Sequence record: ON286972
From: Escherichia phage A4
Length of the DNA: 64,000 bases
Reading direction: 5' to 3' (one strand)
Shown piece by piece: positions 12,266 to 58,295 of the stretch (the stretch's first letter is position 1; each line of letters starts with the position of its first letter). A program made the translations under genes and the position numbers. The notes under the pieces are model-generated. The model was given only the letters and a program-made list of their open reading frames with translations, was not told the DNA's origin and did no database searches.

Positions 12266-12291
12266 AATTATTCCCTTTATGAATTGTTATC

Positions 12292-12307
12292 ATATAGGAA
12301 TATTTAT
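12292..12307 (-). promoter_or_regulatory. late-promoter-like motif
   Basis: Minus-strand ATAAATATTCCTATAT upstream of the collagen-like fibre gene; identical 16-mer at 48038-48053. Confidence 0.45.
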
Positions 12308-12334
12308 CTGTTCAATGCAGCAACGAAGACCAAT

Positions 12335-12344
12335 AATAAATAAA
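12335..12344 (+). promoter_or_regulatory. late-promoter-like motif
   Basis: ATAAATAAAT ~30 nt before ATG 12375. Confidence 0.35.
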
Positions 12345-12374
12345 TGAAAGTTCACTACACAAAAGGGCTTAACA

Positions 12375-13500: not shown

Positions 13501-14598
13501 ATGAATAATTATACTATATATCGCAGTGATGGAAGCGTTTATGCTTCCATTCCAAACAACGTTATCCTTGGTCCTAACCAACCAGGTACTAACCCAGTTC
13601 CTATTAACTTAGTTGGGCGTAATAAGGTTGGTTATGGTCAAGCATGGAACGAAAACTTTCTACACTTAGTTGAGCATTTTAGTGGTCCATCTGCACCACG
13701 TGGTAGTGTTAAAGGACAAATTTGGTATAAAAACACTGGTAACATTGGTGAACTACTTATTTCTCTAGTAGATAACGCTCGTCAACCAATAGACACTGCT
13801 TCTGAAGCAGATTGGGCATCAATCCCAATGATCACAATTTTCAACACCATCCCAGATGGCGAAAGTAGTGTTATGGGTCGTATGGTTTTGACAAATAACG
13901 GTGATTCACTCCGTGTTTTGATGAAAAACAAAGAATGGCGTGAAATTCAAACATCTCGTCCTGAAAACAAAGAATATTCATCACTATTGGATATAAACTA
14001 TGATTTAGGTAAAAAATATATTGAATTTACCCAAACTGAAAGTACTAAGACACTTGCATATTTCAACTTAGGTGGTGGTTCTAAGGTAGATCCAGACAAC
14101 TGGACATCATTTAGTAATGGTAATGGTGTTTTCCAATTCGGAAGTAACTATTTCTATGATTTGAAGATTATGATTCGTGAAGTACAGGATAGTACTGGTG
14201 AAGTTGTTTCTTTACCATTCAACTCCAAGACATTTATCATTAAAGGTCAATTCTATATTGACAATGAAGGTGCTTTTGTGCCAGGTTCTATACCATGTAG
14301 TGAGATTCCAGACCCACGTCGAATTACAAGTCTGGAAGTTATTAAAGATGTTATTACCAGTTCACAACCAACTTGGGATGTTAATATGGTAGTTAATGGT
14401 GTGGACCCAACAATTCCAAATCCAGGTGGAATGACGAAGACTGATTATGAAGCATGGGTTATCAACTCACTCAATACTAATAAACATTTAGGTTTCCGTG
14501 TTGATGGTTCAATTTCCGGTTTAGGAACTGGTCAAAGTGTTAAGCTTCAGGCTTCAGTACTGCTTAATATAACTGGTATTCCTATTATTGGTGTGTAA
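13501..14598 (+). CDS. hypothetical protein (possibly structural)
   Basis: 365-aa ORF with GGAG Shine-Dalgarno; followed by a strong bidirectional terminator. Confidence 0.3.
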   Translation: MNNYTIYRSDGSVYASIPNNVILGPNQPGTNPVPINLVGRNKVGYGQAWNENFLHLVEHFSGPSAPRGSVKGQIWYKNTGNIGELLISLVDNARQPIDTASEADWASIPMITIFNTIPDGESSVMGRMVLTNNGDSLRVLMKNKEWREIQTSRPENKEYSSLLDINYDLGKKYIEFTQTESTKTLAYFNLGGGSKVDPDNWTSFSNGNGVFQFGSNYFYDLKIMIREVQDSTGEVVSLPFNSKTFIIKGQFYIDNEGAFVPGSIPCSEIPDPRRITSLEVIKDVITSSQPTWDVNMVVNGVDPTIPNPGGMTKTDYEAWVINSLNTNKHLGFRVDGSISGLGTGQSVKLQASVLLNITGIPIIGV

Positions 14599-14600
14599 TA

Positions 14601-14633
14601 CAAAAGAAAAGGAGCCATTGGCTCCTTTTTTTA
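14601..14633. terminator. bidirectional rho-independent terminator
   Basis: aaaagaaaaGGAGCCattGGCTCCttttttt at a convergent junction; T-runs on both strands. Confidence 0.7.
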
Positions 14634-15095
14634 ATATCTATATGGTAGACTATTGACAAATTGTGTACCAGCGTTTATACTTTCCCATAAAGAATAAAAA
14701 TCTTTCATCAAATTGACATTTAATAATGTATTTTTAGCTCCAGGGTGAAGAGGTTTAGGCCATGAGCCAATTTTAACCCAAGCATATCCAGAGCTTTCCT
14801 TATTGAGAATAGGAACAAACTCATTTTCAACAACAACAACGAAAGAATAATATTTGAACTTACCATTCTTAGTACAAAATACATCAAAGGGTATAATATC
14901 AATTATATCAGGTAACGAATCTCCCAATTCTTCTCGTATTTCACGATGCAAAGCTTGCAAAGGGGATTCGTTGTATTCGAGTTTTCCACCAACAAAAGCC
15001 CAGTTGTTTGAATAGGTACTGCTTTCAGATCTAAGATTGAGCATCATATGACCAGTACTTTTAGATAAAAATATTGCTCCTACTGCCTCATTCAT
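14631..15095 (-). CDS. Nudix hydrolase
   Basis: Complete Nudix box GKLEYNESPLQALHREIREELGD (GX5EX7REUXEEXGU). Confidence 0.8.
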   Translation of the reverse strand: MNEAVGAIFLSKSTGHMMLNLRSESSTYSNNWAFVGGKLEYNESPLQALHREIREELGDSLPDIIDIIPFDVFCTKNGKFKYYSFVVVVENEFVPILNKESSGYAWVKIGSWPKPLHPGAKNTLLNVNLMKDFYSLWESINAGTQFVNSLPYRY

Positions 15096-33893: not shown

Positions 33894-33941
33894 TTATTAA
33901 TCCTTTAAGCCAATAAAGTACTGGGTCAGTACTGAAATTTT

Positions 33942-33957
33942 ATATAGAAATATTTAT
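33942..33957 (-). promoter_or_regulatory. late-promoter-like motif
   Basis: Minus-strand ATAAATATTTCTATAT upstream of the J-like gene. Confidence 0.45.
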
Positions 33958-33985
33958 CCAAAAGAAAAGCACTCCGAAGAGTGCT
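33957..33985 (-). terminator. rho-independent terminator after gp25 gene
   Basis: Minus-strand AGCACUC-UUCG-GAGUGCU followed by UUUUCUUUU. Confidence 0.55.
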
Positions 33986-33992
33986 TAGTAAA

Positions 33993-34929: not shown

Positions 34930-37588
34930 GACATGCCTCAATTCTACGAGCCATTAACTCTGCACGACGAGTTGTTTGACGATACCAAGCTGAACTACGT
35001 ATATGAGCAGCAGCACCACGATAATCACCTTTAGCTAAACATCCAAGCATACCCTTGAATTTTTGAACTTTGTATTTGCCCATTTGGAATACCATTTGAC
35101 ATAGTACTTGTTGAGCAATAACAGGTGTTTTTAAATCCCATGCCGCATATATTGATTTGGCATCATTAATTGCTTGCGTACTGTCTCGTACTAATATTGC
35201 TTCAGCTTCTGCTTCAGTTATACCACCAGAAAAATCTTCACCTCCGACAATAAGGTGTCCATATCCAATTGTAGGGAATCCACGGCTATCAATATAACGC
35301 CAGAATTTTCCATTTCTGAAATATCCAAGTGCTGTTTGATATTGGATAGTACCTTCGTGTTCTTTAAGTTCGGATATAAATTGGGAATCACCCGGAGCAA
35401 CTTTCCATCCAACGGCAGTTTTATCAACATTACCTACATTATAATTTTGTTCAACTTTTGGAGCGGTTCCTGCATTTCGAGGCTTACGTTCTCTACGACG
35501 AGGAACATGACGAGAACCACGTTGTGAATAACCAGTTCCAATAGTTCGTATGCGAGTTGATATTACCAATTCATCACTATCAGCAGATGGTCTGACCACA
35601 TCTTTAGGGTTATTTTGTGTTGATGGTTGACCCCCAATTAATGTTTTATTCGCAGCGGCAGAACCCTGACCAGTTACAGTTGTGTAGAATAATCCAGGAT
35701 CAACTGAACCACTAAAACCATAGATATTAGATGAGCGAACTCTTATTTCAAATCGTAATATACCATTAGCAGTTCCTATCACTTGTCCTTTTTCAACAAC
35801 ATCTTTATTGAATAGGTCAGAAGTTAAACCATAGAAAACAGATTTATAACCAGATTTATGCTCAACAATAAGAGCATCACCACTGATACCAACAATCCCA
35901 CCATCTGGTGCAACCACACTTCCACGGGCTTGAATTTCCCATCCACTACTATCACGCTTGGTTCCATTCTCGGTCGTTACACCCTTACCCCAATAACCAT
36001 TCTGGCGAATAGTACCGCTACATGGCATAAGCATATGCAAACCTTCAAACGTCTGCGAATAACCAGTCATTCCTGGTTCAGCCGCCATTAAATCTTGTGT
36101 TTGAACTTCACTTGTCTCTGGGGCATAATTTACAAATTGAATTGCTTCTGTTTCTTGTTGCTCTGCAAGTGTAGGTTGAACATCATTTGCTGGTTGTGGC
36201 TCAACTGGAGATGTTGTACTACCTTGACCACCACCACTTATACCAGGATCAACCCTATCACCGTGGTTTTCTGCATCTTTCCAGTTAGCAATCATATGAA
36301 TGTGGTCATTAAGACCCACTGATGGAGTTTTGAAGTCAGGAGCCATGAATGCAGCACTACCACTATTACCTGCACTATCAACTGTTAGGTTTTGACCACC
36401 ACCACTAATGTTAACGGATGAACCACCAATAACGTTTGCAGAGGATGAACCTTTAATAGATGCAGTTGACCCAGCCGTAATATCAGTACTGCTACCACTT
36501 TGAAGACGTAATGAAGCACCAGTAACCAAACGAAGATCAGCACCAGAATTAATTACAACCTGACCATTGACCTTAGCATCCAAATTACCTACCAATTCCA
36601 GTTTGGTATTTCCACCAACACGAGTATTGAAGTCTTGCCCACTTTCAATATTATAAGAACGACCTGCAACCATGTTAATATCTTGACCTGCACGAATGTT
36701 TATGTTTTTATCACAGTGCATTTCAATATCACCATCGCCAGTGAATTTAATACGAGCCGTGCCATCACGGTTAATTAATAAAACATTACCAGTAGCTTCA
36801 GAAATAAGAAGTTGTGCACCACTACGCGTTTTAATAACAATACCTTCATTCTTACGGGAACCAACACGAGTGTCATTAACTGGGTTGTTAAATTGTGTGT
36901 CTTGGTATCCATCAGGGTCTTGATCCCATGTTGGCTTGGTCAATTCTTCTTCTGTATATCCATCATCAAGAATAAAACTATTACCACGAGGTGTACTCAT
37001 ACCATATACAGTACTGGTTGTTTGACGAGTACTGCTGCGGTTTGCAACACCTGCTTCATCATCGTATAATAAGTTTTGTTTTTTCAATCCTTCAACAGCA
37101 GGAACGTTAATATATTTGTCTTGCATGTCAGTTGTGATTGTGTTACGATCATAATCAGTTACTGGTAATGGCATATCAGTACCATTGTAATTGGTATCCG
37201 CAGTTGCCATTCCAGGAACCATTGTATTCATACGTTGGTCATAAACACATCCAATCCAGTAAGCTTGGAATGTACGTGCTTGTGCAAAAATAACAACAAC
37301 AGTACATCCCACATCTGGTGGAACGGCCCAAAAACCATAACCCTTTGGATATTGTCCATAACTATCTGCACTCGGTATTCCTGGAGTTTTGCCAGCAAAC
37401 GGAGCCATATAAGAAGCTTCAATCCATGAATCTTTAGAGTTTTTATCACTTTGTGAACCTTGTATCCATACTTTTAGCTTACCAGATTTCGTAGGATCAC
37501 GGTTATCCATAACGGTTGCTAATTGTGGATAAGATGGGTCAAAACGACCCAACTGTTCCTTTGCATACTTTTTACTTGTATCTGCCAT
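34925..37588 (-). CDS. gp5: baseplate central spike, gp5-like, with C-terminal lysozyme domain
   Basis: N-terminal OB-fold-like segment (GRFDPSYPQLATVMDNRDP...), beta-helix-like repeats (aa ~285-410), an M23/LytM-like segment with zinc ligands replaced (…GILRFEIRV, aa ~505-635) and a C-terminal GH24 lysozyme domain (aa ~725-887). Confidence 0.75.
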   Translation of the reverse strand: MADTSKKYAKEQLGRFDPSYPQLATVMDNRDPTKSGKLKVWIQGSQSDKNSKDSWIEASYMAPFAGKTPGIPSADSYGQYPKGYGFWAVPPDVGCTVVVIFAQARTFQAYWIGCVYDQRMNTMVPGMATADTNYNGTDMPLPVTDYDRNTITTDMQDKYINVPAVEGLKKQNLLYDDEAGVANRSSTRQTTSTVYGMSTPRGNSFILDDGYTEEELTKPTWDQDPDGYQDTQFNNPVNDTRVGSRKNEGIVIKTRSGAQLLISEATGNVLLINRDGTARIKFTGDGDIEMHCDKNINIRAGQDINMVAGRSYNIESGQDFNTRVGGNTKLELVGNLDAKVNGQVVINSGADLRLVTGASLRLQSGSSTDITAGSTASIKGSSSANVIGGSSVNISGGGQNLTVDSAGNSGSAAFMAPDFKTPSVGLNDHIHMIANWKDAENHGDRVDPGISGGGQGSTTSPVEPQPANDVQPTLAEQQETEAIQFVNYAPETSEVQTQDLMAAEPGMTGYSQTFEGLHMLMPCSGTIRQNGYWGKGVTTENGTKRDSSGWEIQARGSVVAPDGGIVGISGDALIVEHKSGYKSVFYGLTSDLFNKDVVEKGQVIGTANGILRFEIRVRSSNIYGFSGSVDPGLFYTTVTGQGSAAANKTLIGGQPSTQNNPKDVVRPSADSDELVISTRIRTIGTGYSQRGSRHVPRRRERKPRNAGTAPKVEQNYNVGNVDKTAVGWKVAPGDSQFISELKEHEGTIQYQTALGYFRNGKFWRYIDSRGFPTIGYGHLIVGGEDFSGGITEAEAEAILVRDSTQAINDAKSIYAAWDLKTPVIAQQVLCQMVFQMGKYKVQKFKGMLGCLAKGDYRGAAAHIRSSAWYRQTTRRAELMARRIEACQ

Positions 37589-40867: not shown

Positions 40868-40919
40868 ATTAGCGATGGCACACGGATTGTGCCTATTGGT
40901 CATTACATGGAGAGTTACA

Positions 40920-41759
40920 ATGATAAACAAGCCGAAGCGTAAGAAGTATCTGAATAACGCAGACTTATTACGTGAAATACATAAAAGTAAGATATCATAC
41001 TGCTGGCTTTTGGATAAAAGTTATGGTATGTATGATTATATTGTGTTTCATGAGTCTGAAATCACAGAAGAATTACTTGAAAAGGCAAAAGCAGCACGAA
41101 TCAAACGTTTGAATAATGAAATGCTTGATAGTGTTCGCGAAAAAGAGAATATGAGTGCTAAGAAAGCAAAGGAATATGCTGATGAGCACGGTCTATTCGT
41201 AAATGATGTACCACTGGATGAAGTGGTGATTAGAGTTATCACTGATGAGCACATTCCACCAGATACACGAGTGAATTTTGAACCATTTAAACATTATATC
41301 GTTGATAATGAAGGTATTCTGTATGAAGTTGTTCGTTCACATTGGAAAGGCGACTTGGAAGATGGCGATTTCTGCTTAACACATGGTAAAATCACAAATG
41401 AACTCGGTAAAATGTTCATTAAACTAGCCGAAGAGATCTCTCACAAATCTAACTACAGAAATTATACGTATTTGGATGAAATGATGGGTGATGCTAGAAT
41501 ACAATTAGTTAAAAATGCACTTCTCTTTAAAGAGAGTATCTTGTATAAGAAAGATAAACCCGCTGTCCAACTAAATCCTTTCTCATACTATACGTCATTC
41601 GTTAACAATAGCTTCCGTTCTATTTTGAACAGTGAGAAGAATGTACGTAACATTCGCGACGACCTTCTTGAGATGCATGGTTTTACACCATCACATACAA
41701 GACAGATTGAAATCGAAATGAATATGATTGAAAGGAAAAATGACGATGGCACTATTTGA
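40920..41759 (+). CDS. gp55: late-transcription sigma factor gp55-like
   Basis: KPKRKKYLNNADLLREI aligns with T4 gp55 KPKYNYVNNKELLQAI, and NPFSYYTSFVNNSFRSILNSEK with [23 protein letters not shown]. Start set at ATG 40920 (GGAGAG Shine-Dalgarno) instead of 40875. ~280 aa versus ~185 in T4. Confidence 0.75.
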   Translation: MINKPKRKKYLNNADLLREIHKSKISYCWLLDKSYGMYDYIVFHESEITEELLEKAKAARIKRLNNEMLDSVREKENMSAKKAKEYADEHGLFVNDVPLDEVVIRVITDEHIPPDTRVNFEPFKHYIVDNEGILYEVVRSHWKGDLEDGDFCLTHGKITNELGKMFIKLAEEISHKSNYRNYTYLDEMMGDARIQLVKNALLFKESILYKKDKPAVQLNPFSYYTSFVNNSFRSILNSEKNVRNIRDDLLEMHGFTPSHTRQIEIEMNMIERKNDDGTI

Positions 41760-48037: not shown

Positions 48038-48053
48038 ATAAATATTCCTATAT
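48038..48053 (+). promoter_or_regulatory. late-promoter-like motif
   Basis: ATAAATATTCCTATAT ~25 nt before ATG 48077. Confidence 0.45.
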
Positions 48054-48076
48054 AAACTTAATGTAGGAATTATTAT

Positions 48077-50248
48077 ATGGCTGTAAACAACAGTGATTAC
48101 TTACTACAACAGATAGTGAATAAATCTAATGATACCGTAGATGGTCTTTCAGCTATACGTGAATTGTTAGCAGAAAGTTTAAAGAATGATAAAAAGAAAA
48201 ATAATGGTGGTGGTAACCCATCACCTGGCGATTCATCTGGACCAAGTGGTGGTGGACGCGGTTCTCGTGGTAATTCATCCTCTATGGGTAAAATGTTCAG
48301 AGCAATGTCCAGCGAAATGACAAACGTTGGTAAAACAATGATGAGTACTTCAGCGAATGTCAGTACTGTCATTAACTCAATGGGTATGAGTGCATCATCC
48401 GTAGCTGGCTCTCTTTCTATGATCCCTGGTCCTGTAGGAATGGCAGCATCAGCATTTAAAATGGTTGCTGATGTAGGGATGGCAGTATATAACGTAATGA
48501 ACGCCCAGCTTGAAATGTACAACAGAGTCAACAGTGCGGGTGTTTCTCTTGCTGAAGGTTATGGCTCTTTGCTAAAAGGTTCAGGTTCAGCGTTAATGTC
48601 TATGGATCTATTCAGTGAAGTAATATCAACTCATAGTGATGTTATTGCACAATTGGATGGTTCGTATGGAGATGGCGTTAAGGAATTTGGTAAATTGTTA
48701 GGTGTAGTTCAAAATGCCCAAGATAAACTTGGCCTATATGGTATGTCACAAAAAACTTTATCAGATTTAGCAGCACGTAACATCAAAATTCAAAAACAAT
48801 TTGGTGGTGCAGAACTAGTAAGGAATATAAACCAAGCACAAAGTACCCAAGAGTTAATTAAAACTATGTCTACTTTTAGTAAGACAATGGGTATGTCAAT
48901 TGATGAATTACTTAAAAAGACACAATCACTTGATAAATCATTTGATGCAAGAATACTAAAAACTACACTAAACAACTGGGTGGGACTATCAGAAGAAACC
49001 GCAACATTAACCACTAAAGCACTTACCGAAGCGGCAGGTGGTATGGGGGATATGGGTACTGATTTCCTAAGATTGATTAGCCACAGAATATCAATTGGTG
49101 GTGTTCCTGATGATTTATTATCTCCAATGATTAGCGAATTCGCTGACCTTGGTGAGAACATGGTTAAGTCTGGTGTAACCGATGCAAAAGCTATACGTGA
49201 AGCACAATATCAGTGGGTGAAGAAAAACAGAAAACGCGTTGAAGCAGATATGGAAGATATGCAACGAAGTCAAAACTTCACCGCTGCCGCATTTGCTAAG
49301 CAAATGTTAGATATGGAAGCTGCAATTAATGCTGACAAAAATCGACCAGCAGATAAAATCGCAGAATTTACTGATAGATTGAACAGATGGGTCAGTACTG
49401 AATTTGTTGCTCCATTCAATAAAATGTATGCTGATGTTCAAAATAATGTTGTTGATTATTTGACAGCAATTGCAGATCGTACCGATAGTGCATGGGGATT
49501 TATTTGGGAATTGGCTAAAGATGGATTTGGGTTAGTTCCAATATTCAAGGATGCGGTTTCTTATGTTGACCGTATTGGTAACGAATTTGTATTATGGCTT
49601 GAGGGATTGGGTTCTGACATATTTGGGGACACATATACTCAAGTTTCAAAAGCATTCGATGACTTCATGAAGAATCTCATGGATTTACCTGGAAAGTTAT
49701 GGGATAAAGTAAAAGGATGGTTTGGTTCAGATGATAAATCTGAAAAACAAGAAGAACCTAAAAAGAAAATAGAAGAGAAAGCTACATCTTTCTGGGATTC
49801 TATTGGTAATTCAGTAGACGATTTCACAAAATTTGTAGAAGAAAAAACACTTGACTTCCAAAAATGGAAATCTTCTAAATTATATACACCACCTAGACCA
49901 TTTAACGTAGATAATGCATATCGAGTCTTGGGCTATGAACCACCTAAAAACGTCCAGACTACAGTAATGCCAAATACACCACCTATGATGGAATTAACTC
50001 GTAAACATTATGATAAATCCGCATGGAAACCTGGTGAAGCACCATTCCCACCAGAACCAGATCGTGATATAAAATCTCTGGTAACGCCTCAAAACGGAAC
50101 TATAAATAATGACATGAGTTCAGAAGAGATCAAAGAAATTTTTAAACGTCTAGCAGAAATGAGTGAACAATCACTCGCAGCAACAAATCAGACAAATAAT
50201 TACTTAAGAACAATTTCTGAAAATACACAAGGTGAACGCAATAGTTAA
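48077..50248 (+). CDS. hypothetical virion protein (Gly/Ser/Met-rich N-terminus)
   Basis: 723-aa ORF immediately upstream of portal; late promoter motif upstream. Confidence 0.4.
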   Translation: MAVNNSDYLLQQIVNKSNDTVDGLSAIRELLAESLKNDKKKNNGGGNPSPGDSSGPSGGGRGSRGNSSSMGKMFRAMSSEMTNVGKTMMSTSANVSTVINSMGMSASSVAGSLSMIPGPVGMAASAFKMVADVGMAVYNVMNAQLEMYNRVNSAGVSLAEGYGSLLKGSGSALMSMDLFSEVISTHSDVIAQLDGSYGDGVKEFGKLLGVVQNAQDKLGLYGMSQKTLSDLAARNIKIQKQFGGAELVRNINQAQSTQELIKTMSTFSKTMGMSIDELLKKTQSLDKSFDARILKTTLNNWVGLSEETATLTTKALTEAAGGMGDMGTDFLRLISHRISIGGVPDDLLSPMISEFADLGENMVKSGVTDAKAIREAQYQWVKKNRKRVEADMEDMQRSQNFTAAAFAKQMLDMEAAINADKNRPADKIAEFTDRLNRWVSTEFVAPFNKMYADVQNNVVDYLTAIADRTDSAWGFIWELAKDGFGLVPIFKDAVSYVDRIGNEFVLWLEGLGSDIFGDTYTQVSKAFDDFMKNLMDLPGKLWDKVKGWFGSDDKSEKQEEPKKKIEEKATSFWDSIGNSVDDFTKFVEEKTLDFQKWKSSKLYTPPRPFNVDNAYRVLGYEPPKNVQTTVMPNTPPMMELTRKHYDKSAWKPGEAPFPPEPDRDIKSLVTPQNGTINNDMSSEEIKEIFKRLAEMSEQSLAATNQTNNYLRTISENTQGERNS

Positions 50249-50263
50249 AGGATTAATAATATA

Positions 50264-51991
50264 ATGAGTTGGAAACGTCACATGACTATGGGAAGATCAA
50301 AATTATCGATCGTACCCCAGCAATCCAATAGTAATAAATCCCCTGGGAGCAAAACTAATTTTGCTTCCTACCTTCCGGTGGTTTATAACGGATTGGCAAA
50401 CCGTACTGACCGTTACAGTCAATACGACCAGATGGATCAAGACCCAGAAATCAGAACGGCACTAAACATTATTGCTGACTTTTGTACACAGAGTACTGAA
50501 GATTTTGGTCTACCATATAAAATTAAATATAAAGATAATATTGGTGATACGGAAGTAACCACTATTGAAGACCGCTTAGATGCATGGACTGAACAGAATG
50601 ATTTCAAAACAAGAATGTATGAAATTGTTCGCGGACTACTTAAGTACGGTGACCAGTTCTTTATTCGTGACCCAGAAACATTCGACTGGTATTGGGTTAA
50701 CCCAAAAAATGTCGAACAGGTTTTTGTTAACGAAGCAACCGGAAAAACACCAGTAATATACTATATAAGAGATGTATCTCTTAACCTTAAAGATAAAGTT
50801 TTTAGTAACCTTCAAATTGGTTTTGATAAAGCTTCATATCCAGGGGCAATACCGAACACACTAGGTGGTGGTGGTCAAGTTGCCGCAGGTGGTGCATCTG
50901 GTTTTACCAACCAAGGTAATAGTTCCGATCCATTTAATACAAATGGTCGTATGGATATTATACCAGTTGGTGCAGAACACGTAATTCATCTGTCACTAAA
51001 TACAGGACAAGATGGAGTTTGGCCTTTCGGTACAAGTATACTAGAAGATGTCTTTAAAGTCTACAAACAAAAAGAACTTCTTGAAGATAGTATTATTATC
51101 TATCGTGTACAACGTGCACCAGAACGCCGCGTATTCAAAATTGATGTTGGTGATATGCAAACTAACCAAGCAATGGCATATGTTGAACGCTTTAAAAATG
51201 AAATCCATCAAAGACGTATACCTTCTAATAAAGGTGGCAGTACTTCATTGATGGATGCAGCATACAACCCACTAAGTATATTGGAAGACTATTTCTTCCC
51301 ACAAACTTCCGAAGGTCGTGGTTCAGATGTTCAAACACTACCTGGTGGTGATAACTTAGGTCAGATTGATGACTTGAGATATTTTAATAATAAACTAATT
51401 CGTGGCTTACAAATCCCAGCATCTTACCTTCCACAAGGTCCAGATGACGGCGGCGTATCACTATTTGGTGATGGTGCAACTCAAGCAATGGCAAGTGAAT
51501 TACGTTTTAATAACCAATGTATGCGTTATCAGCGTCTAGTTGCAAAAATTTTCGATGCCGAATTTAAGCGTTTTATGGTAAAAAATGGATATAACATTAG
51601 TACTTCTTCTTTTGAAGTTATTATGAATCCACCAATTAACTTGGCTTCTTATCGTAAAGCAGAATTGGATGCGAAACTCATTAATACATATATGCCACTT
51701 AATGAATTACCATATATGGCGAAACAAACTATCCTTGAAAAAATGGGCTTCTCCCAGAAAGATATTGTTAAAAATGAACAGCTATGGTTACAAGAGAATC
51801 CACAAGATTCTAATGCACCACAACAAGAAGATGTTGCTGGATTACAGTCAGTTGGTATCGACTCTCCTAATGACCCAGGTATGGACCTAGGATTAGATGC
51901 AGATGGTAATCTGGAAAGTGCTGACGCTGAATACCAAAATCAGCAAGGAAATGGCTCTTTTGACCCTAATAATTTAGGTGAATCTTTTTAA
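50264..51991 (+). CDS. gp20: portal vertex protein gp20
   Basis: IIYRVQRAPERRVFKIDVGDM...TLPGGDNLGQIDDLRYF aligns with T4 gp20 [21 protein letters not shown]...TLPGADNTGNMEDIRWF. Confidence 0.9.
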   Translation: MSWKRHMTMGRSKLSIVPQQSNSNKSPGSKTNFASYLPVVYNGLANRTDRYSQYDQMDQDPEIRTALNIIADFCTQSTEDFGLPYKIKYKDNIGDTEVTTIEDRLDAWTEQNDFKTRMYEIVRGLLKYGDQFFIRDPETFDWYWVNPKNVEQVFVNEATGKTPVIYYIRDVSLNLKDKVFSNLQIGFDKASYPGAIPNTLGGGGQVAAGGASGFTNQGNSSDPFNTNGRMDIIPVGAEHVIHLSLNTGQDGVWPFGTSILEDVFKVYKQKELLEDSIIIYRVQRAPERRVFKIDVGDMQTNQAMAYVERFKNEIHQRRIPSNKGGSTSLMDAAYNPLSILEDYFFPQTSEGRGSDVQTLPGGDNLGQIDDLRYFNNKLIRGLQIPASYLPQGPDDGGVSLFGDGATQAMASELRFNNQCMRYQRLVAKIFDAEFKRFMVKNGYNISTSSFEVIMNPPINLASYRKAELDAKLINTYMPLNELPYMAKQTILEKMGFSQKDIVKNEQLWLQENPQDSNAPQQEDVAGLQSVGIDSPNDPGMDLGLDADGNLESADAEYQNQQGNGSFDPNNLGESF

Positions 51992-52061
51992 TAATAAATA
52001 ACAATGTATATAAATGAAGGGAACGTAAAAAATTCCCTTCATATTAATGCAAGGAGATAGC

Positions 52062-52292
52062 ATGTTAAAGGATATCTTTGAATCGAATTCTGATTCTATG
52101 TACGACCCTGAAGATGATCAGACCGTATATAAAATTACGGATTCTAGAAAACCCAAACTCACATTGCAAGTACTTAACAATCTGCGTAAGTACAGAGAAT
52201 TTAAAGCAAATGAAGAACAGCGTAGAAATAATGTAGTCGCTGTTGTTTATGCTCCAGCACCAGCACCTGATGCTAATGCCGGAATGATGTAA
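52062..52292 (+). CDS. small head-module protein (possible prohead core component)
   Basis: 76-aa ORF between portal and acidic protein; start at ATG 52062 five nt after AAGGAG. Confidence 0.4.
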   Translation: MLKDIFESNSDSMYDPEDDQTVYKITDSRKPKLTLQVLNNLRKYREFKANEEQRRNNVVAVVYAPAPAPDANAGMM

Positions 52293-52333
52293 TACCTTAA
52301 AAATCGCTCTTTTTAAAGCTTTTAAAAATGACG

Positions 52334-52363
52334 AATTTTTTCAGTACTAAATAATATCATACT
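52334..52363 (+). promoter_or_regulatory. conserved 30-nt leader element before the acidic head protein gene
   Basis: AATTTTTTCAGTACTAAATAATATCATACT; near-identical to 55102-55133. Confidence 0.45.
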
Positions 52364-52396
52364 TTATAGGAATTAAATATATCTTTGGAGGATATA

Positions 52397-53239
52397 ATGG
52401 CTAATTTAAAACTACTACAAGAAGCAATCGAAGCTTTTGCTAACGGCGAGCAAGATGTAGCTGATAAAAAAATGCGTAAGTACTTTGTTGAACAAGCACA
52501 AGAAATTAACAAAGAACTAGAAGAAAGCATGGACGACGAAGAATGCTGCGATGAAGACGACAAAGAAGAGAAACTAGAAGAAGACTTCGACGTTTCCCCA
52601 GATGCTGGTCTTAATAGTCAAATCGAATATTCTCTTGGTGAAGAAGACAAGAGTGCTGAAGATGATATCGAATTCCAAGCTGGTGAAGAAGATTCTGAAG
52701 GTGAAGTTGGTGCAGAAGGTGAAGAAGTCCCTTCCGAAGACCAATGGGCGTCCATTCAAGATGCTTTCCGTGGCCTACAACAAATGTTTGATGAAATCTC
52801 CGGCGAAGGTGAAGTTGACCTAGACGCTGAAGAACCAGTAGGTGGCGAAGAAGAAGTTGATCTAGAAGTTGGTTCCGAAGACGGCGGTGATGATTTCGCT
52901 GATGTTCAATTCGGTGATGAAAAAGTTGGTGAGTCTTTCAAACTAAAAGCAGTTGCTGATGTTGATAAGAAAGAAAAAGCTGGTGCAAATACTAAATCCC
53001 CAGTTGCTTCCCAAGCTAAATCTCCAGTACAAGGCGTAGCTCCAGTAAAAATCGCTAAAAACTCAACTCCAGTAGTTGATGACAAATTTGATGGCGTAGA
53101 TACTGAATCTCACACCGTACCAGAAGATATGAATAATGTTATGGATAGCGGCAAAGGCGTAATGAAAGACGTTAAGAAAGTAACCACTGGTTCTTCTAAG
53201 TCTCGTTCCCCACTACCAAAATCACAACCAAAATTCTAA
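52397..53239 (+). CDS. highly acidic prohead core / scaffold-like protein
   Basis: Long Asp/Glu runs (EEDSEGEVGAEGEEVPSED...); start at ATG 52397 after GGAGG (track start 52385 is TTG inside the Shine-Dalgarno). Confidence 0.5.
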   Translation: MANLKLLQEAIEAFANGEQDVADKKMRKYFVEQAQEINKELEESMDDEECCDEDDKEEKLEEDFDVSPDAGLNSQIEYSLGEEDKSAEDDIEFQAGEEDSEGEVGAEGEEVPSEDQWASIQDAFRGLQQMFDEISGEGEVDLDAEEPVGGEEEVDLEVGSEDGGDDFADVQFGDEKVGESFKLKAVADVDKKEKAGANTKSPVASQAKSPVQGVAPVKIAKNSTPVVDDKFDGVDTESHTVPEDMNNVMDSGKGVMKDVKKVTTGSSKSRSPLPKSQPKF

Positions 53240-53269
53240 TAATAAATAAAACAAAGAAAGGAGATCATT

Positions 53270-53890
53270 ATGAGTATGATTCGTGAATGGTCTTCATTCA
53301 ATGATTCACAAATTGTTATGGAACATCGTGATAATGGGCTGGGAGGTCGCGATTGCTATCTTCGTGGTATCGCAATTCAAGCTGACCAGCGTAATTTGAA
53401 CGAAAGAATTTACCCTTTAGCCGAAATTGCTAAAGCTGTTAATAATATGGCTCAACGTTTGGCTAAAGGCGAAAGCATTCTAGTAGAATGTGACCACCCT
53501 GAAACTTTGACTATTAACCTTGACCGTGTAGCAGCAATGATTACTAAAGTCTGGATGGAAGGTTCTAATGGGATGGCAGAAATCAAATTACTTGATACTG
53601 CACATGGTCAAAATATTCGTAAAATGCTCGAAGCAGGTGTAAAACTTGGTGTAAGTTCTCGTGGTTCCGGTAACGTTGATTATAATGGAATAGTTTCTGA
53701 TTTCGAAATTATCACAATTGATATTGTTGCTCAACCTAGTGCTCCCGAAGCGTACCCAACAGCGGTATTTGAGTCTTTGATGAGTAAGTACGGCTCACCT
53801 TGCAATGGACCTAAAAAAATCACAGAATCTAAATCAGTAAATAAACTAGATTCTGAAATTTATGATTTTTTCAAGAAATTAAAAGGTTAA
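53270..53890 (+). CDS. gp21: prohead core protease gp21
   Basis: NERIYPLAEIAKAV, VECDHPE, GVSSRGSGN, VAQPSAPEAYPT align with T4 gp21 KRLYPKRILEKAV, GELNHP, GVSSRGLGS, VWGPSAPDAWVTP. Confidence 0.9.
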   Translation: MSMIREWSSFNDSQIVMEHRDNGLGGRDCYLRGIAIQADQRNLNERIYPLAEIAKAVNNMAQRLAKGESILVECDHPETLTINLDRVAAMITKVWMEGSNGMAEIKLLDTAHGQNIRKMLEAGVKLGVSSRGSGNVDYNGIVSDFEIITIDIVAQPSAPEAYPTAVFESLMSKYGSPCNGPKKITESKSVNKLDSEIYDFFKKLKG

Positions 53891-53902
53891 CATTTTAAAA
53901 TT

Positions 53903-53918
53903 ATAAATATTTGTATAT
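53903..53918 (+). promoter_or_regulatory. late-promoter-like motif before scaffold gene
   Basis: ATAAATATTTGTATAT, then ATTTCAGTACT leader and AAAGGAG Shine-Dalgarno. Confidence 0.5.
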
Positions 53919-53958
53919 TTGAAGTACAGATATTTCAGTACTTAAAGGAGAGAACAGA

Positions 53959-55077
53959 ATGTCTAAATTAGAAAAGCTTCTAAAAGAATCATCTCTTTCT
54001 GATGAAGCAAAACAGCTAATTCAGGAAGCATGGAATGAAGAAAAGAACACACTAGCCGCTGAAATGCGTGAAGAAATGAAAGGCCGTTATAAACAAGACC
54101 TAGCTGAACTAACAGAAGGTCTTAACACTATGGTTACTCAAGTTATCGCTGAAGAAATGGGTGCAGTATATGACGAGAAAAAACGTCTCGTTGAAGACCG
54201 CGTTACCCTCCGTAAAACTCTTGGTAACTTCTCTGAATTCGCTAATTCAGTACTAGCTGAAGAAGTTAAACAAATGCGTAACGAACGTAAACTAGTTCAA
54301 GAAAGCCTCGGTAAATTCGTTAATTTCTCTAACGGTATCCTAGCTGAAGAACTAAAAGAATTCCACAGCGAAAAACGTCAACTAGTAGAAGCTCGTGTAA
54401 AACTACTTGCTGAAGGTTCTCGTCAAATTGCAGAAGCACGTAATAACTTTATCAAACGTACCTCTGAAAGTGCTGCTAAATATATTGCAGAAACCACTCA
54501 GAAAAATCTTTACGCTTTGAAACAAGATCTTGCTGAAGCTAAACAAAATATGTTCGGTCGTAAAATCTTTGAAGCATTTGCTCAAGAATTTAATACCAAA
54601 CAATTTAATGAGAATTCACTACTTCGTTCTTTGACTGAATCAATCAAATCTAAAGAAGATGAGATTGCTCAAGTTAAACAAGAACTAAATGAATCTGTTA
54701 ACGCAGTTAAAGAAGTTCAATCAAAACTACGTATCATGGAAGATACACAGGCACGCAATGCGATTATGTCTGAATTGGTTAAGCCTTTGACTAGTCAACA
54801 AAAACAAATTATGGAATCCCTTCTAGCTGCTTCTCCAACAGAAAAGCTTAAAGAAGATTTCAGCAAGTACCATAAGTCTGTACTTAACGGTACTAAAGTA
54901 AATGAATCTGCTACCACTCGTCAAGCAGTTCAACCTTCAGCGAAGAAAACAACCCTAGCAGAAGGTAAAGTAATCACTGGCAACCGTCAGGCTATTGTTG
55001 AAAGCGAAGAAATGACCGCTGACGATATGGCATTCCTAAAAGAACTCGACGTTCTTTCTGGTATCAATAAAAAATAA
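53959..55077 (+). CDS. gp22: prohead scaffold protein (at the gp22 position)
   Basis: 372-aa charged protein with coiled-coil character, between protease and capsid genes; late promoter motif upstream. Confidence 0.6.
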   Translation: MSKLEKLLKESSLSDEAKQLIQEAWNEEKNTLAAEMREEMKGRYKQDLAELTEGLNTMVTQVIAEEMGAVYDEKKRLVEDRVTLRKTLGNFSEFANSVLAEEVKQMRNERKLVQESLGKFVNFSNGILAEELKEFHSEKRQLVEARVKLLAEGSRQIAEARNNFIKRTSESAAKYIAETTQKNLYALKQDLAEAKQNMFGRKIFEAFAQEFNTKQFNENSLLRSLTESIKSKEDEIAQVKQELNESVNAVKEVQSKLRIMEDTQARNAIMSELVKPLTSQQKQIMESLLAASPTEKLKEDFSKYHKSVLNGTKVNESATTRQAVQPSAKKTTLAEGKVITGNRQAIVESEEMTADDMAFLKELDVLSGINKK

Positions 55078-55101
55078 ACATTTTAAAGCATTTTAATAAT
55101 C

Positions 55102-55133
55102 AATTTTTTCAGTACCATAAATAATAACATACT
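55102..55133 (+). promoter_or_regulatory. conserved leader element before major capsid gene
   Basis: AATTTTTTCAGTACCATAAATAATAACATACT containing CATAAATA. Confidence 0.5.
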
Positions 55134-55169
55134 GAAAAACGAATATAACATCTTTAAGGAGATAATATA

Positions 55170-56345
55170 ATGTCACAACTACTAAATGAATCCAAATGGG
55201 TAGCAGTTAAAGAGAAACTAGTTGAAGGTCTTCAAGGTACTCGTAAATCCGTAATGGAAACCGTTCTTGATAACCATCGTAAAGTTATGCTACAAGAATC
55301 TGCAACCGCTGGTGCAACTTCTGCTGGTAACATCGCTACTCTAAACAAAGTGATTCTACCAATTATGCGTCGTGTAATGCCAACCGTTATCGCTAACGAA
55401 ATCATCGGTGTTCAACCAATGACTGGCCCAGTTGGTCAAATCCACACTCTACGTGTTCAATACGCTGACAACGCACCAGGTGTTGTAGCTGGCGAAGAAA
55501 TGCTATCTCCATTCAAGATTGCTAAATCTTACACTGGTGAGCTAAACTCTGACAACAGCAACCCACAAGCTGCTCCTACTAGCCAACTAGAAGGTACTAT
55601 GGGTCGTCGCGTTAACATCCGTATCCTACGTGAAACTGTTGAAGCGAAATCTCGTCGTCTATCTGCACGTTGGACTGTTGAATCTGCACAAGATGCACAA
55701 TCTCAACATGGTATCGACGTTGAAGCTGAACTAATGGCTGCTATCGCACAAGAAGTTACCGTTGAAATCGACCAAGAACTACTAAGCCGTCTACGTGCTC
55801 TACCAGGTGCTGCTGCTGTAACTTATGACCAATCTAAAGTAACTGGCGTTGCTACTTTCGTTGGTGATGAGCACGCTGCTCTAGCTACCCTAATCAACCG
55901 TCAAGCGAACGAAGTTGCTCGTCGTACCAAACGTGGTGCTGCGAACTGGGCTGTTGTTTCCCCAACCGCTCTAACTATTCTACAATCTGCAACTACTTCT
56001 AGCTTTGCACGTACTACTGAAGGTACTTTTGAAGCACCAACTAACGTTAAATTCGTTGGTACTCTAAACAGCACCATGCGTATCTTTGTTGATACCTACG
56101 CAAGTGACGTAGAAGATATTCTAATTGGTTATAAAGGTAATGCAGAAACTGATGCTGGTGTATTCTATTGCCCATACATCCCACTAATGGCATCTGGTAC
56201 TGTTATGGACCCTAACACTGGAGAACTCGTTACAACTTTCTTAACCAGATACGGGTATGTTCAGTTGACCGATAGCACCAGTTCACTAGGTAACGCTGCG
56301 GACTACTACAGCAAAATCGCTATCAAAAACGTTACTTTCATGTAA
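55170..56345 (+). CDS. gp23: major capsid protein gp23-like
   Basis: IANEIIGVQPMTGPVGQ, VEAKSRRLSARWTVESAQDAQSQHGIDVEAEL and GYKGNAETDAGVFYCPYIPL align with T4 gp23; strong terminator follows. 391 aa versus 521 in T4. Confidence 0.9.
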   Translation: MSQLLNESKWVAVKEKLVEGLQGTRKSVMETVLDNHRKVMLQESATAGATSAGNIATLNKVILPIMRRVMPTVIANEIIGVQPMTGPVGQIHTLRVQYADNAPGVVAGEEMLSPFKIAKSYTGELNSDNSNPQAAPTSQLEGTMGRRVNIRILRETVEAKSRRLSARWTVESAQDAQSQHGIDVEAELMAAIAQEVTVEIDQELLSRLRALPGAAAVTYDQSKVTGVATFVGDEHAALATLINRQANEVARRTKRGAANWAVVSPTALTILQSATTSSFARTTEGTFEAPTNVKFVGTLNSTMRIFVDTYASDVEDILIGYKGNAETDAGVFYCPYIPLMASGTVMDPNTGELVTTFLTRYGYVQLTDSTSSLGNAADYYSKIAIKNVTFM

Positions 56346-56368
56346 TAATAAAGAATTTAAATATACTA

Positions 56369-56398
56369 GGGACTCTTCGGAGTCCCTTTTCTTTTTTT
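56369..56398 (+). terminator. strong rho-independent terminator after major capsid gene
   Basis: GGGACTC-ttcg-GAGTCCC then TTTTCTTTTTTT. Confidence 0.8.
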
Positions 56399-56474
56399 CA
56401 GAAAAAAAGCTTGACAAGTAGATTTTAATTATATATAATTACCACATACCAAAAATCACAAAGAGACAAATAAA

Positions 56475-57581
56475 ATGCCAAAAGTAAGTATCGACAAAGA
56501 AAAATTCATTGAAGAGATGAACAACAAGTATGGAGCATATGGTGAATTTGATTTCAGCACTTTAGTATTCAAAGCCAGTAAGACAACAGTTAAATGTAAT
56601 AAATGCGGAAAAGAAAATACTAAACCTGCACTACGTCACATTTCATGTACATGTTCTTCATGTTATTCAAACATGTCACAGCGTTCGAACAACGAAAAAT
56701 TTATCAGCACGGTAGAAACTAAATTTGGAAAAGATAAATTCAAATTTGATAAACTAAATTACATTAACGCTATAACAAAAGTAACAATACTCTGTACAGA
56801 CGAAGAACATAACGATTACTTTGAAATTACACCAAACAAATTTCTTACTGGTAAGGGATGTCCTATATGTAATAAAAATGAAGCATACAGTACTGAAGAA
56901 TTCGTAGAAAAAGTAAAAGAAAATTATGGTGATTCATTAGATTTAACTAACACAGTATATGTAAATCAAAAAACTAAAGTAACTGTGTATTGTAAAGCGG
57001 GTAACCATGAATGGACAGTTGATCCGAAAACTTTACTTGTTGGTAAGACTGGTTGTGGTACATGCTCCGGTAAAGGTGGTCGCAGTACTGAACGTTTCAT
57101 TGAACTGGTATCACCTATCCATAACCATAAGTATGATTATAGTTTGGTTGAATATACTATAAGCGAGAATTATGTTGATATTGTATGTCCAACTCATGGT
57201 GTTTTCTCCCAACAACCAAAAGCACATATGGCTGGTAAAGGATGCCCATCATGTGGTGAATATGGATATCAGCCATCAAAACCTGGATATTTCTATGTTC
57301 AAAAACTAACTAATAAAGATAAGACAGTGTACAAGTATGGAATCACTGGCGATATGAAACGCCGTGTAAATGAGCAAAGTCGTCATTCTGATTTTGAACA
57401 CACTGTACTGGTAGAACGTTACTTTGAAGATGGTCATAAACCCTTAGTACTGGAAAAGTTTTTGAAACAATACATTGATAGTGGTGTAGTAACTACTGAA
57501 GAGTTGCCATCAGGATTCACAGAAACTTTTGATGCTAAGTATCTTGAAACAGTACTGGAGATTGTAAATACATTTGAATAA
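56475..57581 (+). CDS. zinc-ribbon repeat protein with C-terminal GIY-YIG-superfamily-like domain (putative free-standing endonuclease)
   Basis: Four ~60-aa modules each ending in a Cys pair (CNKCGKEN / GKGCPICN / GCGTCSG / GKGCPSCG), then GYFYVQKL...YKYGITGDMKRRVNEQSRH; motif reading only. Confidence 0.45.
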   Translation: MPKVSIDKEKFIEEMNNKYGAYGEFDFSTLVFKASKTTVKCNKCGKENTKPALRHISCTCSSCYSNMSQRSNNEKFISTVETKFGKDKFKFDKLNYINAITKVTILCTDEEHNDYFEITPNKFLTGKGCPICNKNEAYSTEEFVEKVKENYGDSLDLTNTVYVNQKTKVTVYCKAGNHEWTVDPKTLLVGKTGCGTCSGKGGRSTERFIELVSPIHNHKYDYSLVEYTISENYVDIVCPTHGVFSQQPKAHMAGKGCPSCGEYGYQPSKPGYFYVQKLTNKDKTVYKYGITGDMKRRVNEQSRHSDFEHTVLVERYFEDGHKPLVLEKFLKQYIDSGVVTTEELPSGFTETFDAKYLETVLEIVNTFE

Positions 57582-57605: not shown

Positions 57606-57956
57606 ATGTTAACTGTATACATTTTTAAAAAAGAAGAGTACTTAAAGAGTCAGTACTCAAAAATTGAGATCAATGTTCCTTATGGAACGTTGGTGGGTTA
57701 TGATGAGGCTACGGAGACGTTGTATTACAATGATGATCGTCTGGATTACAGTACTGATCATTTTATAGAAGATATATTGAGTACTGAATCAGAAGACATG
57801 TTGTATGAAGAATATATTGACAAATACAAAGAACGCATGTCGAAGTTACATGCTGATGCTCCAGTACTGAACACTCCTAAAACCCCATCCGAGTTTGATC
57901 CTCAAAATCCATTTCAACGCCTGATAGATGCGGGTGTAAACTTCAGAATTAGTTAA
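57606..57956 (+). CDS. hypothetical protein
   Basis: 116-aa ORF between the two GIY-YIG-like genes. Confidence 0.3.
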   Translation: MLTVYIFKKEEYLKSQYSKIEINVPYGTLVGYDEATETLYYNDDRLDYSTDHFIEDILSTESEDMLYEEYIDKYKERMSKLHADAPVLNTPKTPSEFDPQNPFQRLIDAGVNFRIS

Positions 57957-57986
57957 TAATAAATATCTCCATACTAGGAGATATCT

Positions 57987-58295
57987 ATGTCACAAATATG
58001 TTATGTAATCACTAATAGTGCATGGCCTGAATATGTAAAGATAGGCTTCACTACAAAATCAGAGATGAAAGAGCGTTTAGGTGTTTATCAGACAGCTTCA
58101 CCATTCAGGGATTTTGAGGTATACCATCAGGTTATGTTTGACGATGCACGAACAGCAGAAAAGGAAGTGCATAAGAGATTAAAGCAAATGAATGCAACAA
58201 GGCAACCTAACTCTGAATGGTTCAAGATGCCTAAAAAGTTAGCTGCAAATATTATTGATTCCGTATTGGATGATATGGAAAATGATTTACTATAG
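57987..58295 (+). CDS. T5orf172 / GIY-YIG-like domain protein
   Basis: CYVITNSAWPEYVKIGFTTKSEMKERL...VH..L...EWF fits the T5orf172-type GIY-YIG pattern; GGAG Shine-Dalgarno. Confidence 0.55.
   Translation: MSQICYVITNSAWPEYVKIGFTTKSEMKERLGVYQTASPFRDFEVYHQVMFDDARTAEKEVHKRLKQMNATRQPNSEWFKMPKKLAANIIDSVLDDMENDLL

Follow-up and report, generated by a model that had tools for sequence, protein, structure and literature searches.

Probable T4-type late promoters within a near-identical element upstream of two head genes of Escherichia phage A4

The late promoters of phage T4 carry the motif TATAAATA and are read by gp55 together with gp33 and gp45. For the jumbo phage CBB the motif ATAAATA, seen also in GAP32, has been proposed as the late promoter and likened to the T4 motif, and the same genome was reported to encode a gp55-like protein (CBB_244) and no gp33 or gp45 homologs (PMC5259590). 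Two other arrangements are close to the one described below: the T4 genes e, soc, 49, and I-TevI, whose late promoter sits within a hairpin, which in read-through transcripts masks the ribosome-binding site (reviewed in PMC3014915), and PeSLs, the composite terminator/early-promoter cassettes of T4-like phages (PMC2839356, PMC4122927). In this work we analyze a 64,000-nucleotide (nt) stretch of Escherichia phage A4 (sequence record ON286972), referred to as the window at its whole length, in which a near-identical element of 30 nt precedes two head genes, one coding for an acidic virion structural protein and the other for the major capsid protein (MCP). An earlier reading made from the letters alone (the sequence-only reading) had taken this element for a leader, whose shared extension would be a common regulatory or RNA-binding site coordinating the expression of head proteins.

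We consider it probable that the 30-mer is a T4-type late promoter covered from about −25 to +5, and that its two copies belong to paralogous terminator-plus-promoter cassettes whose flanks play different roles in each copy. The host RNA polymerase with a phage gp55-like sigma factor would read (C/A)TAAATA and start at the A of CATACT after a 5-nt spacer. One such cassette would front the acidic core/structural gene (52397–53239, plus strand, 280 amino acids; PHROG 15696 "virion structural protein," E 6e-106) and the other the gp23-like MCP gene (55170–56345, plus strand; Pfam Gp23, E 5e-90, and annotations in relatives). At the acidic gene the T-run would act as the U-tract ending transcription that comes from the portal gene and a small open reading frame (ORF), while at the capsid gene the terminator stem would have decayed, and the T-run plus CAGTA would pair with TACTGAAAAA downstream of the start in a conserved stem of 8–11 bp. 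This second hairpin would mark or shape RNA that reads through, perhaps giving protection to the scaffold mRNA at its 3′ end or altering the use of the A-rich leader.

The repeat itself is found where the sequence-only reading had seen it, at 52334–52363 (AATTTTTTCAGTACTAAATAATATCATACT, copy 1) and 55102–55133 (AATTTTTTCAGTACCATAAATAATAACATACT, copy 2), with 29 of 30 aligned positions identical, one mismatch, and a 2-nt insertion (CA) that brings copy 2 to 32 nt. Both are on the plus strand. Copy 1 is made up of TTTTTT as the tail of a putative terminator, CAGTAC, CTAAATA as the late −10 element (52347–52353), the spacer ATATC, and the initiator CATACT, and copy 2 of a T-run with CAGTAC, the late −10 element ATAAATA (55117–55123), the spacer ATAAC, and again CATACT. 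Throughout the window, the exact 14-mer AATTTTTTCAGTAC occurs at these two sites only. The similarity goes well beyond the 30 bases first noticed, extending in local alignment over about 80 nt (52298–52376 versus 55068–55148). With a score of 38, the two upstream regions rank first among 861 upstream-region pairs (mean 10.4, standard deviation 2.9), and the highest score reached in 2000 shuffles was 30. A genome-wide search had also been suggested, and blastn with the 68-nt MCP version, covering whole genomes, locates it once or twice in each complete Asteriusvirus genome, which makes this a two-copy element and not a dispersed family.

The invariant part of the element is what identifies it. 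There are 20 ATAAATA sites in the window, 17 of them intergenic and oriented toward the next gene, and they share the pattern ATAAATA-N4-YATA. The window also encodes a gp55-like late sigma factor (40875–41759, plus strand), with matches at E 1.5e-151 to PHROG 12791 ("sigma factor for late transcription") and at E 3.6e-17 to PHROG 234 ("late sigma transcription factor"); the Pfam search gave no match for this product, and its ortholog in phage 121Q bears the annotation RNA polymerase sigma factor. We presume that this factor reads the ATAAATA promoters. In the region upstream of the MCP gene, ATAAATA and CATAC are the invariant columns across 22 relatives, and the ATAAATA core of the promoter of the gp22-like scaffold gene (53903–53909, plus strand) is invariant in all relatives examined. 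The −10 element, its placement and orientation, and the encoded gp55-family sigma factor all agree with T4-type late promoters, and by this analogy the (C/A)TAAATA core is the predicted late promoter of the clade. The −10 8-mer is CATAAATA in copy 2 and ACTAAATA in copy 1. The promoters orthologous to copy 1 read TATAAATAATnACATAC in Munch, EJP2, GAP32, CBB, and XbC2. In other genera the acidic gene has the T4 motif TATAAATA, the orthologs of the two copies there being either TATAAATA or xATAAATA. Across genera, only an extended promoter, ATAAATAAnnnCATAC, is common to both head genes. The promoter model can be sharpened in this way, with ATAAATA-N4-YATA as the general form and the extended ATAAATAAnnnCATAC for the two head genes, although most of the finding is known biology, a T4-style late promoter having been predicted previously for the clade.

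A sigma-70 promoter was also considered in copy 1, where ATGACG-16-AATAAT matches the consensus at merely 9 of 12 positions, and this weak candidate was discarded. Elsewhere in the window, stop codons overlap the late −10 element in a recurrent manner: TAATAATAAATA, a double stop running into the late motif of the next gene, is found at 51989–52000, 53237–53248, and 57954–57965, and the same overlap appears at 12331–12342, there as ATAATAAATA. The divergent intergenic region 12266–12374 carries back-to-back late motifs (12307 on the minus strand and 12336 on the plus strand) for structural genes of opposite orientation.

By analogy with T4 the transcripts would start at the A of CATACT, that is, at A52359 in copy 1 and A55129 in copy 2. 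About 25 of the 30 bases would therefore lie upstream of the transcript, and leader is the wrong term for them: with T4-type spacing, each gene's own late mRNA would include just the final 5 nt or so of the 30-mer. The sequence-only reading, in which one shared RNA-binding or translational regulator would bind the 30-mer as a transcribed leader and coordinate head-protein synthesis, can point to an element confined to two head genes, to CATAC(T) and the following A-rich leader being common and conserved, and to the same CATAC-to-ATATT change in both RaK2 copies. In its favor, too, the whole element would be contained in read-through RNA coming from upstream promoters. Even so, we find it unlikely. 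Apart from the position of the start, its invariant core is a general late-promoter motif that precedes 17 genes of the window, conservation of the T-run/CAGTAC part at the acidic gene does not extend beyond Asteriusvirus, and a search of 51900–56500 found no Rfam family at E ≤1. What stands is a regulatory element specific to the two head-protein genes, and what falls is its reading as a leader and RNA-binding site.

The flank of copy 1 looks like an intrinsic terminator. An AT-rich hairpin followed by a T-run (AAAAATCGC...GACGAATTTTTT, 52299–52340, plus strand) lies after the small ORF of 81 amino acids and appears in the minimum free energy (MFE) fold of the window, and its U-tract is the TTTTTT with which copy 1 begins. 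A hairpin and then a T-run are found at the same position, right after the small ORF, in 14 of 14 relatives, with energies from −6.8 to −22.3 kcal/mol, most between −12 and −22. The stems differ in sequence yet remain complementary (ATCGC/GCGAT, ATCCGT/ACGGAT, ATGGCA/TGCCAT, GTGCCAT/ATGGTAT, AACGC/GCGTT, and CCAGCT/AGCTGG), and the record of phage Munch annotates this hairpin as a terminator. The version in the window is the weakest (−6.8 kcal/mol), with an AT-rich, imperfect stem that a simple terminator scan does not call. The upstream part of copy 2 (AAAAAATAAACATTTTAAAGCATTTTAATAATC, 55068–55101, plus strand) is homologous to the hairpin of copy 1 by alignment and lacks its G+C stem base; the scan called no terminator-like site there. 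A single role for the shared extension does not fit these data, its T-run being the U-tract of a putative terminator in one copy and part of the 5′ arm of a promoter-straddling hairpin in the other.

At the capsid gene the arms of this second hairpin are TTTTTCAGTA (55105–55114, about −25 to −16) and TACTGAAAAA (55130–55139, about +2 to +11), both on the plus strand. They form a stem of 10 bp whose 15-nt loop (55115–55129) encloses the promoter, and the structure is part of the MFE fold of the read-through RNA. The arms were taken by homology from 22 relatives (15 distinct sequences), each side being anchored independently. In the 15 distinct sequences the core pairs are C-G (12) or U-A (3), U-A (8) or A-U (7), and G-C (14) or G-U (1), with none broken; two of the three show full compensatory change, and 79% of all cells are paired. 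The inverted repeat is thus retained, with compensated changes, in several genera. The covariation score is 0.231, against 0.129 ± 0.016 in shuffles (0 of 500 reach it) and at most 0.106 in register-shifted controls. Among 47 late-promoter-like sites from the window and from the 148.5 kb of the 348.5-kb genome of 121Q covered by our motif and hairpin survey, straddling stems are typically of 3–5 bp, while the two MCP sites have 10 and 9 bp. With its 5′ arm upstream of the predicted start, the hairpin would form only in read-through RNA from the promoters of the acidic, protease, or scaffold genes, and the terminator scan found none separating these genes from each other.

The function of this hairpin could be protection of the 3′ end of the upstream mRNA, hiding of the A-rich 5′ leader in read-through RNA, or a role at the DNA level. 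Ribosome-binding-site masking of the e/soc type was tried as a candidate for both the MCP and the acidic genes and is unsupported by accessibility calculations; the 3′ arm of the MCP hairpin ends about 27 nt before the Shine-Dalgarno (SD) sequence AAGGAG. An outer helix that touches the SD in the MFE fold of the window (TTTAAAG/CTTTAAG) was likewise set aside, as Munch, RaK2, GAP32, and others do not show it. RNAalifold, applied to a MAFFT alignment of the MCP upstream regions, gave no structure, with the arms out of register. A more daring proposal, to which we give little credence, is that the conserved hairpin with the MCP promoter in its loop acts at the level of nucleic-acid structure, either with the non-template strand folding to present ATAAATA single-stranded to the gp55-like sigma factor, or as an RNA switch that separates read-through from promoter-proximal MCP mRNA by means other than masking. 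If the DNA-folding version were true, the most highly expressed gene would have a structure-activated promoter, in a clade without recognizable gp33 or gp45. The covarying hairpin around the MCP promoter is in any case the only moderately surprising part of the finding.

A DNA-level element at the capsid gene is an alternative, with TTTTTCAGTA and TACTGAAAAA as half-sites of a dimeric regulator or as an extruded hairpin or cruciform presenting the −10 element single-stranded, following an N4-like logic. The dyad axis falls on the ATAAATA core, with the arms at about −25 to −16 and +2 to +11, these arms change jointly (CAG/CTG to CTG/CAG), and DNA hairpins also tolerate G-T mismatches. Against this, ATAAATA is still flanked by an inverted repeat in distant relatives, with a sequence unrelated to this one (CTTAAA/TTTAAG in L102 and TATAT/ATATA in a Vibrio phage), which fits the conservation of a structure and not of a recognition sequence. 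A 15-nt loop on a 10-bp AT-rich stem would make a poor cruciform, the other late promoters are without such arms, which speaks against a general requirement of the sigma factor, and the non-Watson-Crick pairs of the MCP stem are all G-T on the plus strand, with no A-C, favoring a plus-strand RNA. Overall, this explanation seems to us improbable. We are equally doubtful that the similarity beyond the promoter is a functionless trace of recent duplication or gene conversion and the MCP inverted repeat a mere consequence of T-richness upstream and of an A-rich leader: the long similarity is indeed lineage-specific, T-runs and A-runs pair trivially, fold z-scores are non-significant, and one subclade has an eroded hairpin, but the core pairs (C-G, W-W, and G-C) are unbroken in 15 distinct sequences with two compensatory switches, the signal is lost in register-shifted controls, and the stem length is an outlier among late promoters.

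Several observations weigh against our preferred interpretation, that of late promoters in paralogous cassettes. The 8-mer of copy 1, ACTAAATA (with CTAAATA), differs from TATAAATA at two positions, and copy 1 may be a weak promoter. In the literature searched there are no mapped 5′ ends for RaK2-like enterobacterial phages, and the PA5oct RNA-seq paper holds no usable data on late promoters or transcription start sites for this question; the use of the promoters and the position of +1 rest for this reason on the analogy with T4. Concerning the capsid hairpin, its stem is eroded to 4–5 bp in the subclade of XaC1, L019, and L098, and inverted-repeat covariation alone does not discriminate among pairing in RNA, pairing in DNA, and a symmetric site for a protein. 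The folding energy of the MCP read-through region does not differ significantly from shuffles (z = −1.64), as expected for such AT-rich RNA, and it is the comparative data that carry the argument for the hairpin. Finally, the unpaired probability of the MCP SD is 0.39–0.41 in read-through and 0.44–0.52 in promoter-started RNA, with similar values in 13 relatives.

The comparison among genera seems to indicate how the two copies came to be alike. Within a genome, the similarity score between the acidic and MCP upstream regions is 36–40 in the window, BF17, and 121Q, and 16–23 in other genera, the latter being close to the 9–18 seen for other late-promoter pairs. The Asteriusvirus MCP upstream region scores 24–32 against the acidic upstream regions of other genera, exceeding what the MCP regions of those same genera score against them. 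A long similarity restricted to Asteriusvirus suggests that in this lineage the terminator-promoter cassette was copied, or brought by gene conversion, into the region upstream of the MCP gene, and duplication or gene conversion of the cassette is, from these alignments, the most likely origin of the ~80-nt similarity. An ancient site common to both genes appears less likely with such a restricted distribution. In RaK2 the change from CATAC to ATATT is present in both copies, as would be compatible with concerted evolution and equally with a common constraint acting where transcription starts. It follows from the preferred origin that regulatory cassettes get copied within these genomes.

The head-gene block containing both copies is 88% identical to that of Escherichia phage BF17, about 84–86% to other Asteriusvirus (121Q and PBECO4), and about 73–76% to Munch, EJP2, RaK2, GAP32, CBB, and Yersinia phage fHe-Yen9-04. 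Judging by these matches, the window is part of a RaK2-like (Asteriusvirus-related) jumbo myovirus. Its gene order matches T4 genes 20–23: the portal gene (50264–51991) and the small ORF (52047–52292) are followed by the acidic gene, annotated as "structural protein" gp600 in 121Q, then by the gp21-like protease (53270–53890), the gp22-like scaffold (53959–55077), and the MCP gene. Scans of viral and metagenome sequences with the MCP protein added only about 10 distinct members of the clade. Relatives with 64–70% MCP identity, mostly aquatic metagenome contigs (L023–L088 and L104–L174), have a scaffold–MCP spacer of about 15–30 nt without ATAAATA, and the MCP-proximal late promoter would therefore be an innovation of the enterobacterial RaK2-like clade. 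T4 itself is not a direct precedent for it, as its gene 22–23 spacer is of 18 nt and no TATAAATA is found in the ~120 nt upstream.

A related motif, TTTCAGTAC, had been noticed after the late motif of the scaffold gene and of a "J-like" gene, and it is indeed present at 53933–53941 and, on the minus strand, at 33937–33929, but as evidence for a common site it is weak. The ATTTCAGTACT copies are arms of separate leader hairpins, CAGTAC being common genome-wide, and the supposed J homolog is a gp6-like baseplate wedge protein by the annotation of relatives. In the scaffold mRNA the leader hairpin (GAAGTAC...GTACTT, 53922–53943, plus strand) ends 2–3 nt before the SD, and TTTCAGTAC is the end of its loop plus its 3′ arm. 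In 12 of 14 relatives a hairpin is predicted at the corresponding site, and RaK2 and the Vibrio phage lack it; the 5′ arm shows A-to-G changes only, by which G-U pairs are kept. The wedge gene (33893–30429, minus strand) has its late promoter ATAAATA at 33957–33951 and a 7-bp leader hairpin (AGTACTG/CAGTACT, 33933–33917), of which TTTCAGTAC is the 5′ arm; this one is limited to Asteriusvirus, being present in PBECO4 and absent from SE_PL and GAP32. There are 12 occurrences of TTTCAGTAC against 0.87 expected from dinucleotide shuffles, eight of them in coding sequence, and it was rejected as a genome-wide motif, a maximal-order Markov model already expecting 10.6. AGTACT and CAGTAC are over-represented 5–6 times genome-wide, mostly as Ser-Thr or Val-Leu codon pairs (frame distribution 36/4/18), and the weakness of the recurrence as evidence comes from this coding-driven excess.

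AGTACT, a ScaI site, is also the most over-represented 6-bp palindrome in the window, with 112 sites (5.2 times the expectation from base composition), mostly as AGT-ACT (Ser-Thr) or GTA-CTx (Val-Leu). At least 12 other 6-bp palindromes are absent from the window, including CTGCAG, CTCGAG, CCATGG, CAGCTG, AGGCCT, AGCGCT, and ACCGGT, which suggests restriction-site avoidance. The junction between the gp25-like and gp6-like wedge genes varies among relatives. In 121Q (L181) it contains an HNH endonuclease gene annotated as "protein associated with group I intron" (14100–14864), which is missing from the window (33894–33992) and PBECO4, and RaK2 has there a non-coding insert of about 250 nt containing ATTTCAGTACTT. 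Apart from these, a fibre-like gene of 1845 amino acids (2381–7918, minus strand) contains degenerate direct repeats in abundance, their periods being multiples of 3, among them 222-nt and 197-nt copies 495 nt apart (85 and 70% identity).

Four other late promoters of the window, at 48038–48079, 57959–57989, 12307–12263 (minus strand), and 47440–47401 (minus strand), have an anti-SD arm that overlaps or abuts the −10 element, upstream of the predicted start. The arms and their own SD regions are, respectively, ATTCCTA/TAGGAAT, ATATCTCC/GGAGATAT, TATTCC/GGAATA, and TACTTTC/GAAAGTA, and the predicted SD accessibility rises from 0.14–0.40 in read-through to 0.60–0.70 in promoter-started RNA. One of the four genes (57987–58295) encodes a T5orf172/GIY-YIG-like protein, echoing the regulation of T4 homing endonucleases. 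At 35020–35080 of 121Q (L179) there is a hairpin of 11–14 bp (AAAACTCCAAGATT...AATCTTGGAGTTTT) followed by a T-run; its loop holds ATAAATA and its 3′ arm the SD (GGAG) of the following gene, the DnaJ-like gp49, a layout that would combine terminator, late promoter, and ribosome-binding-site mask in one element. Directly after the MCP gene, the region 56368–56439 carries a strong terminator (AGGGACTCTTCGGAGTCCCT plus a T-run) and then a perfect sigma-70 consensus promoter (TTGACA-17-TATAAT, 12 of 12) before the gene 56475–57581, whose matches to zinc-finger and T5orf172 are weak and whose annotation in relatives is "endonuclease." Within the late head/tail block, region and gene together resemble a PeSL-like cassette of the early type that may include a mobile endonuclease gene.

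Set beside the described systems, the two head-gene sites are close to the late promoters of T4, with which they share an AT-rich motif consisting of a −10 element only, located before structural genes and with no evident −35 element, an intergenic enrichment of this motif in gene orientation, and a gp55-like sigma factor encoded in the window. They differ from them in that the conserved unit is the 7-mer ATAAATA, with CTAAATA in copy 1, and in the extended ATAAATAAnnnCATAC shared by the head genes; the starts here are predicted, and in the CBB study no homologs of gp33 or gp45 are reported (PMC5259590). The hairpin before the acidic gene resembles rho-independent terminators in being followed by a T-run and in the covariation of its orthologs, although the stem in the window is AT-rich, imperfect, weak (−6.8 kcal/mol), and missed by a simple scan, while at the MCP gene no U-tract follows the hairpin, which is not a terminator. 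PeSL cassettes offer a limited parallel for the whole arrangement: a terminator stem-loop fused to a promoter, repeated in the genome, with copies similar enough to recombine, and copy 1 has exactly this layout (hairpin 52299–52340, promoter 52347–52353), copy 2 appearing as a decayed version. PeSLs are, however, of the sigma-70 type and present in many copies at variable genes, whereas the promoters here are late-type and only two copies exist, in a conserved head-gene block rather than in hyperplastic regions, with no cassette-associated indel seen.

The T4 genes e, soc, 49, and I-TevI are matched at the MCP gene in that the late promoter lies between the arms of a hairpin that would be formed only in RNA started upstream. 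Here the likeness ends, since the 3′ arm stops well before the SD, whose accessibility barely shifts, so that neither the SD nor the start codon appears sequestered. All upstream promoters are moreover also late, and the hairpin would not separate early from late RNA. The full T4-like design is found at other genes of the window and of 121Q, the four promoters described above matching by prediction that of e, soc, and I-TevI. Taken together with these promoter-in-hairpin arrangements, the MCP hairpin suggests that RaK2-like jumbo phages routinely tune late gene expression by transcript-specific RNA structure.

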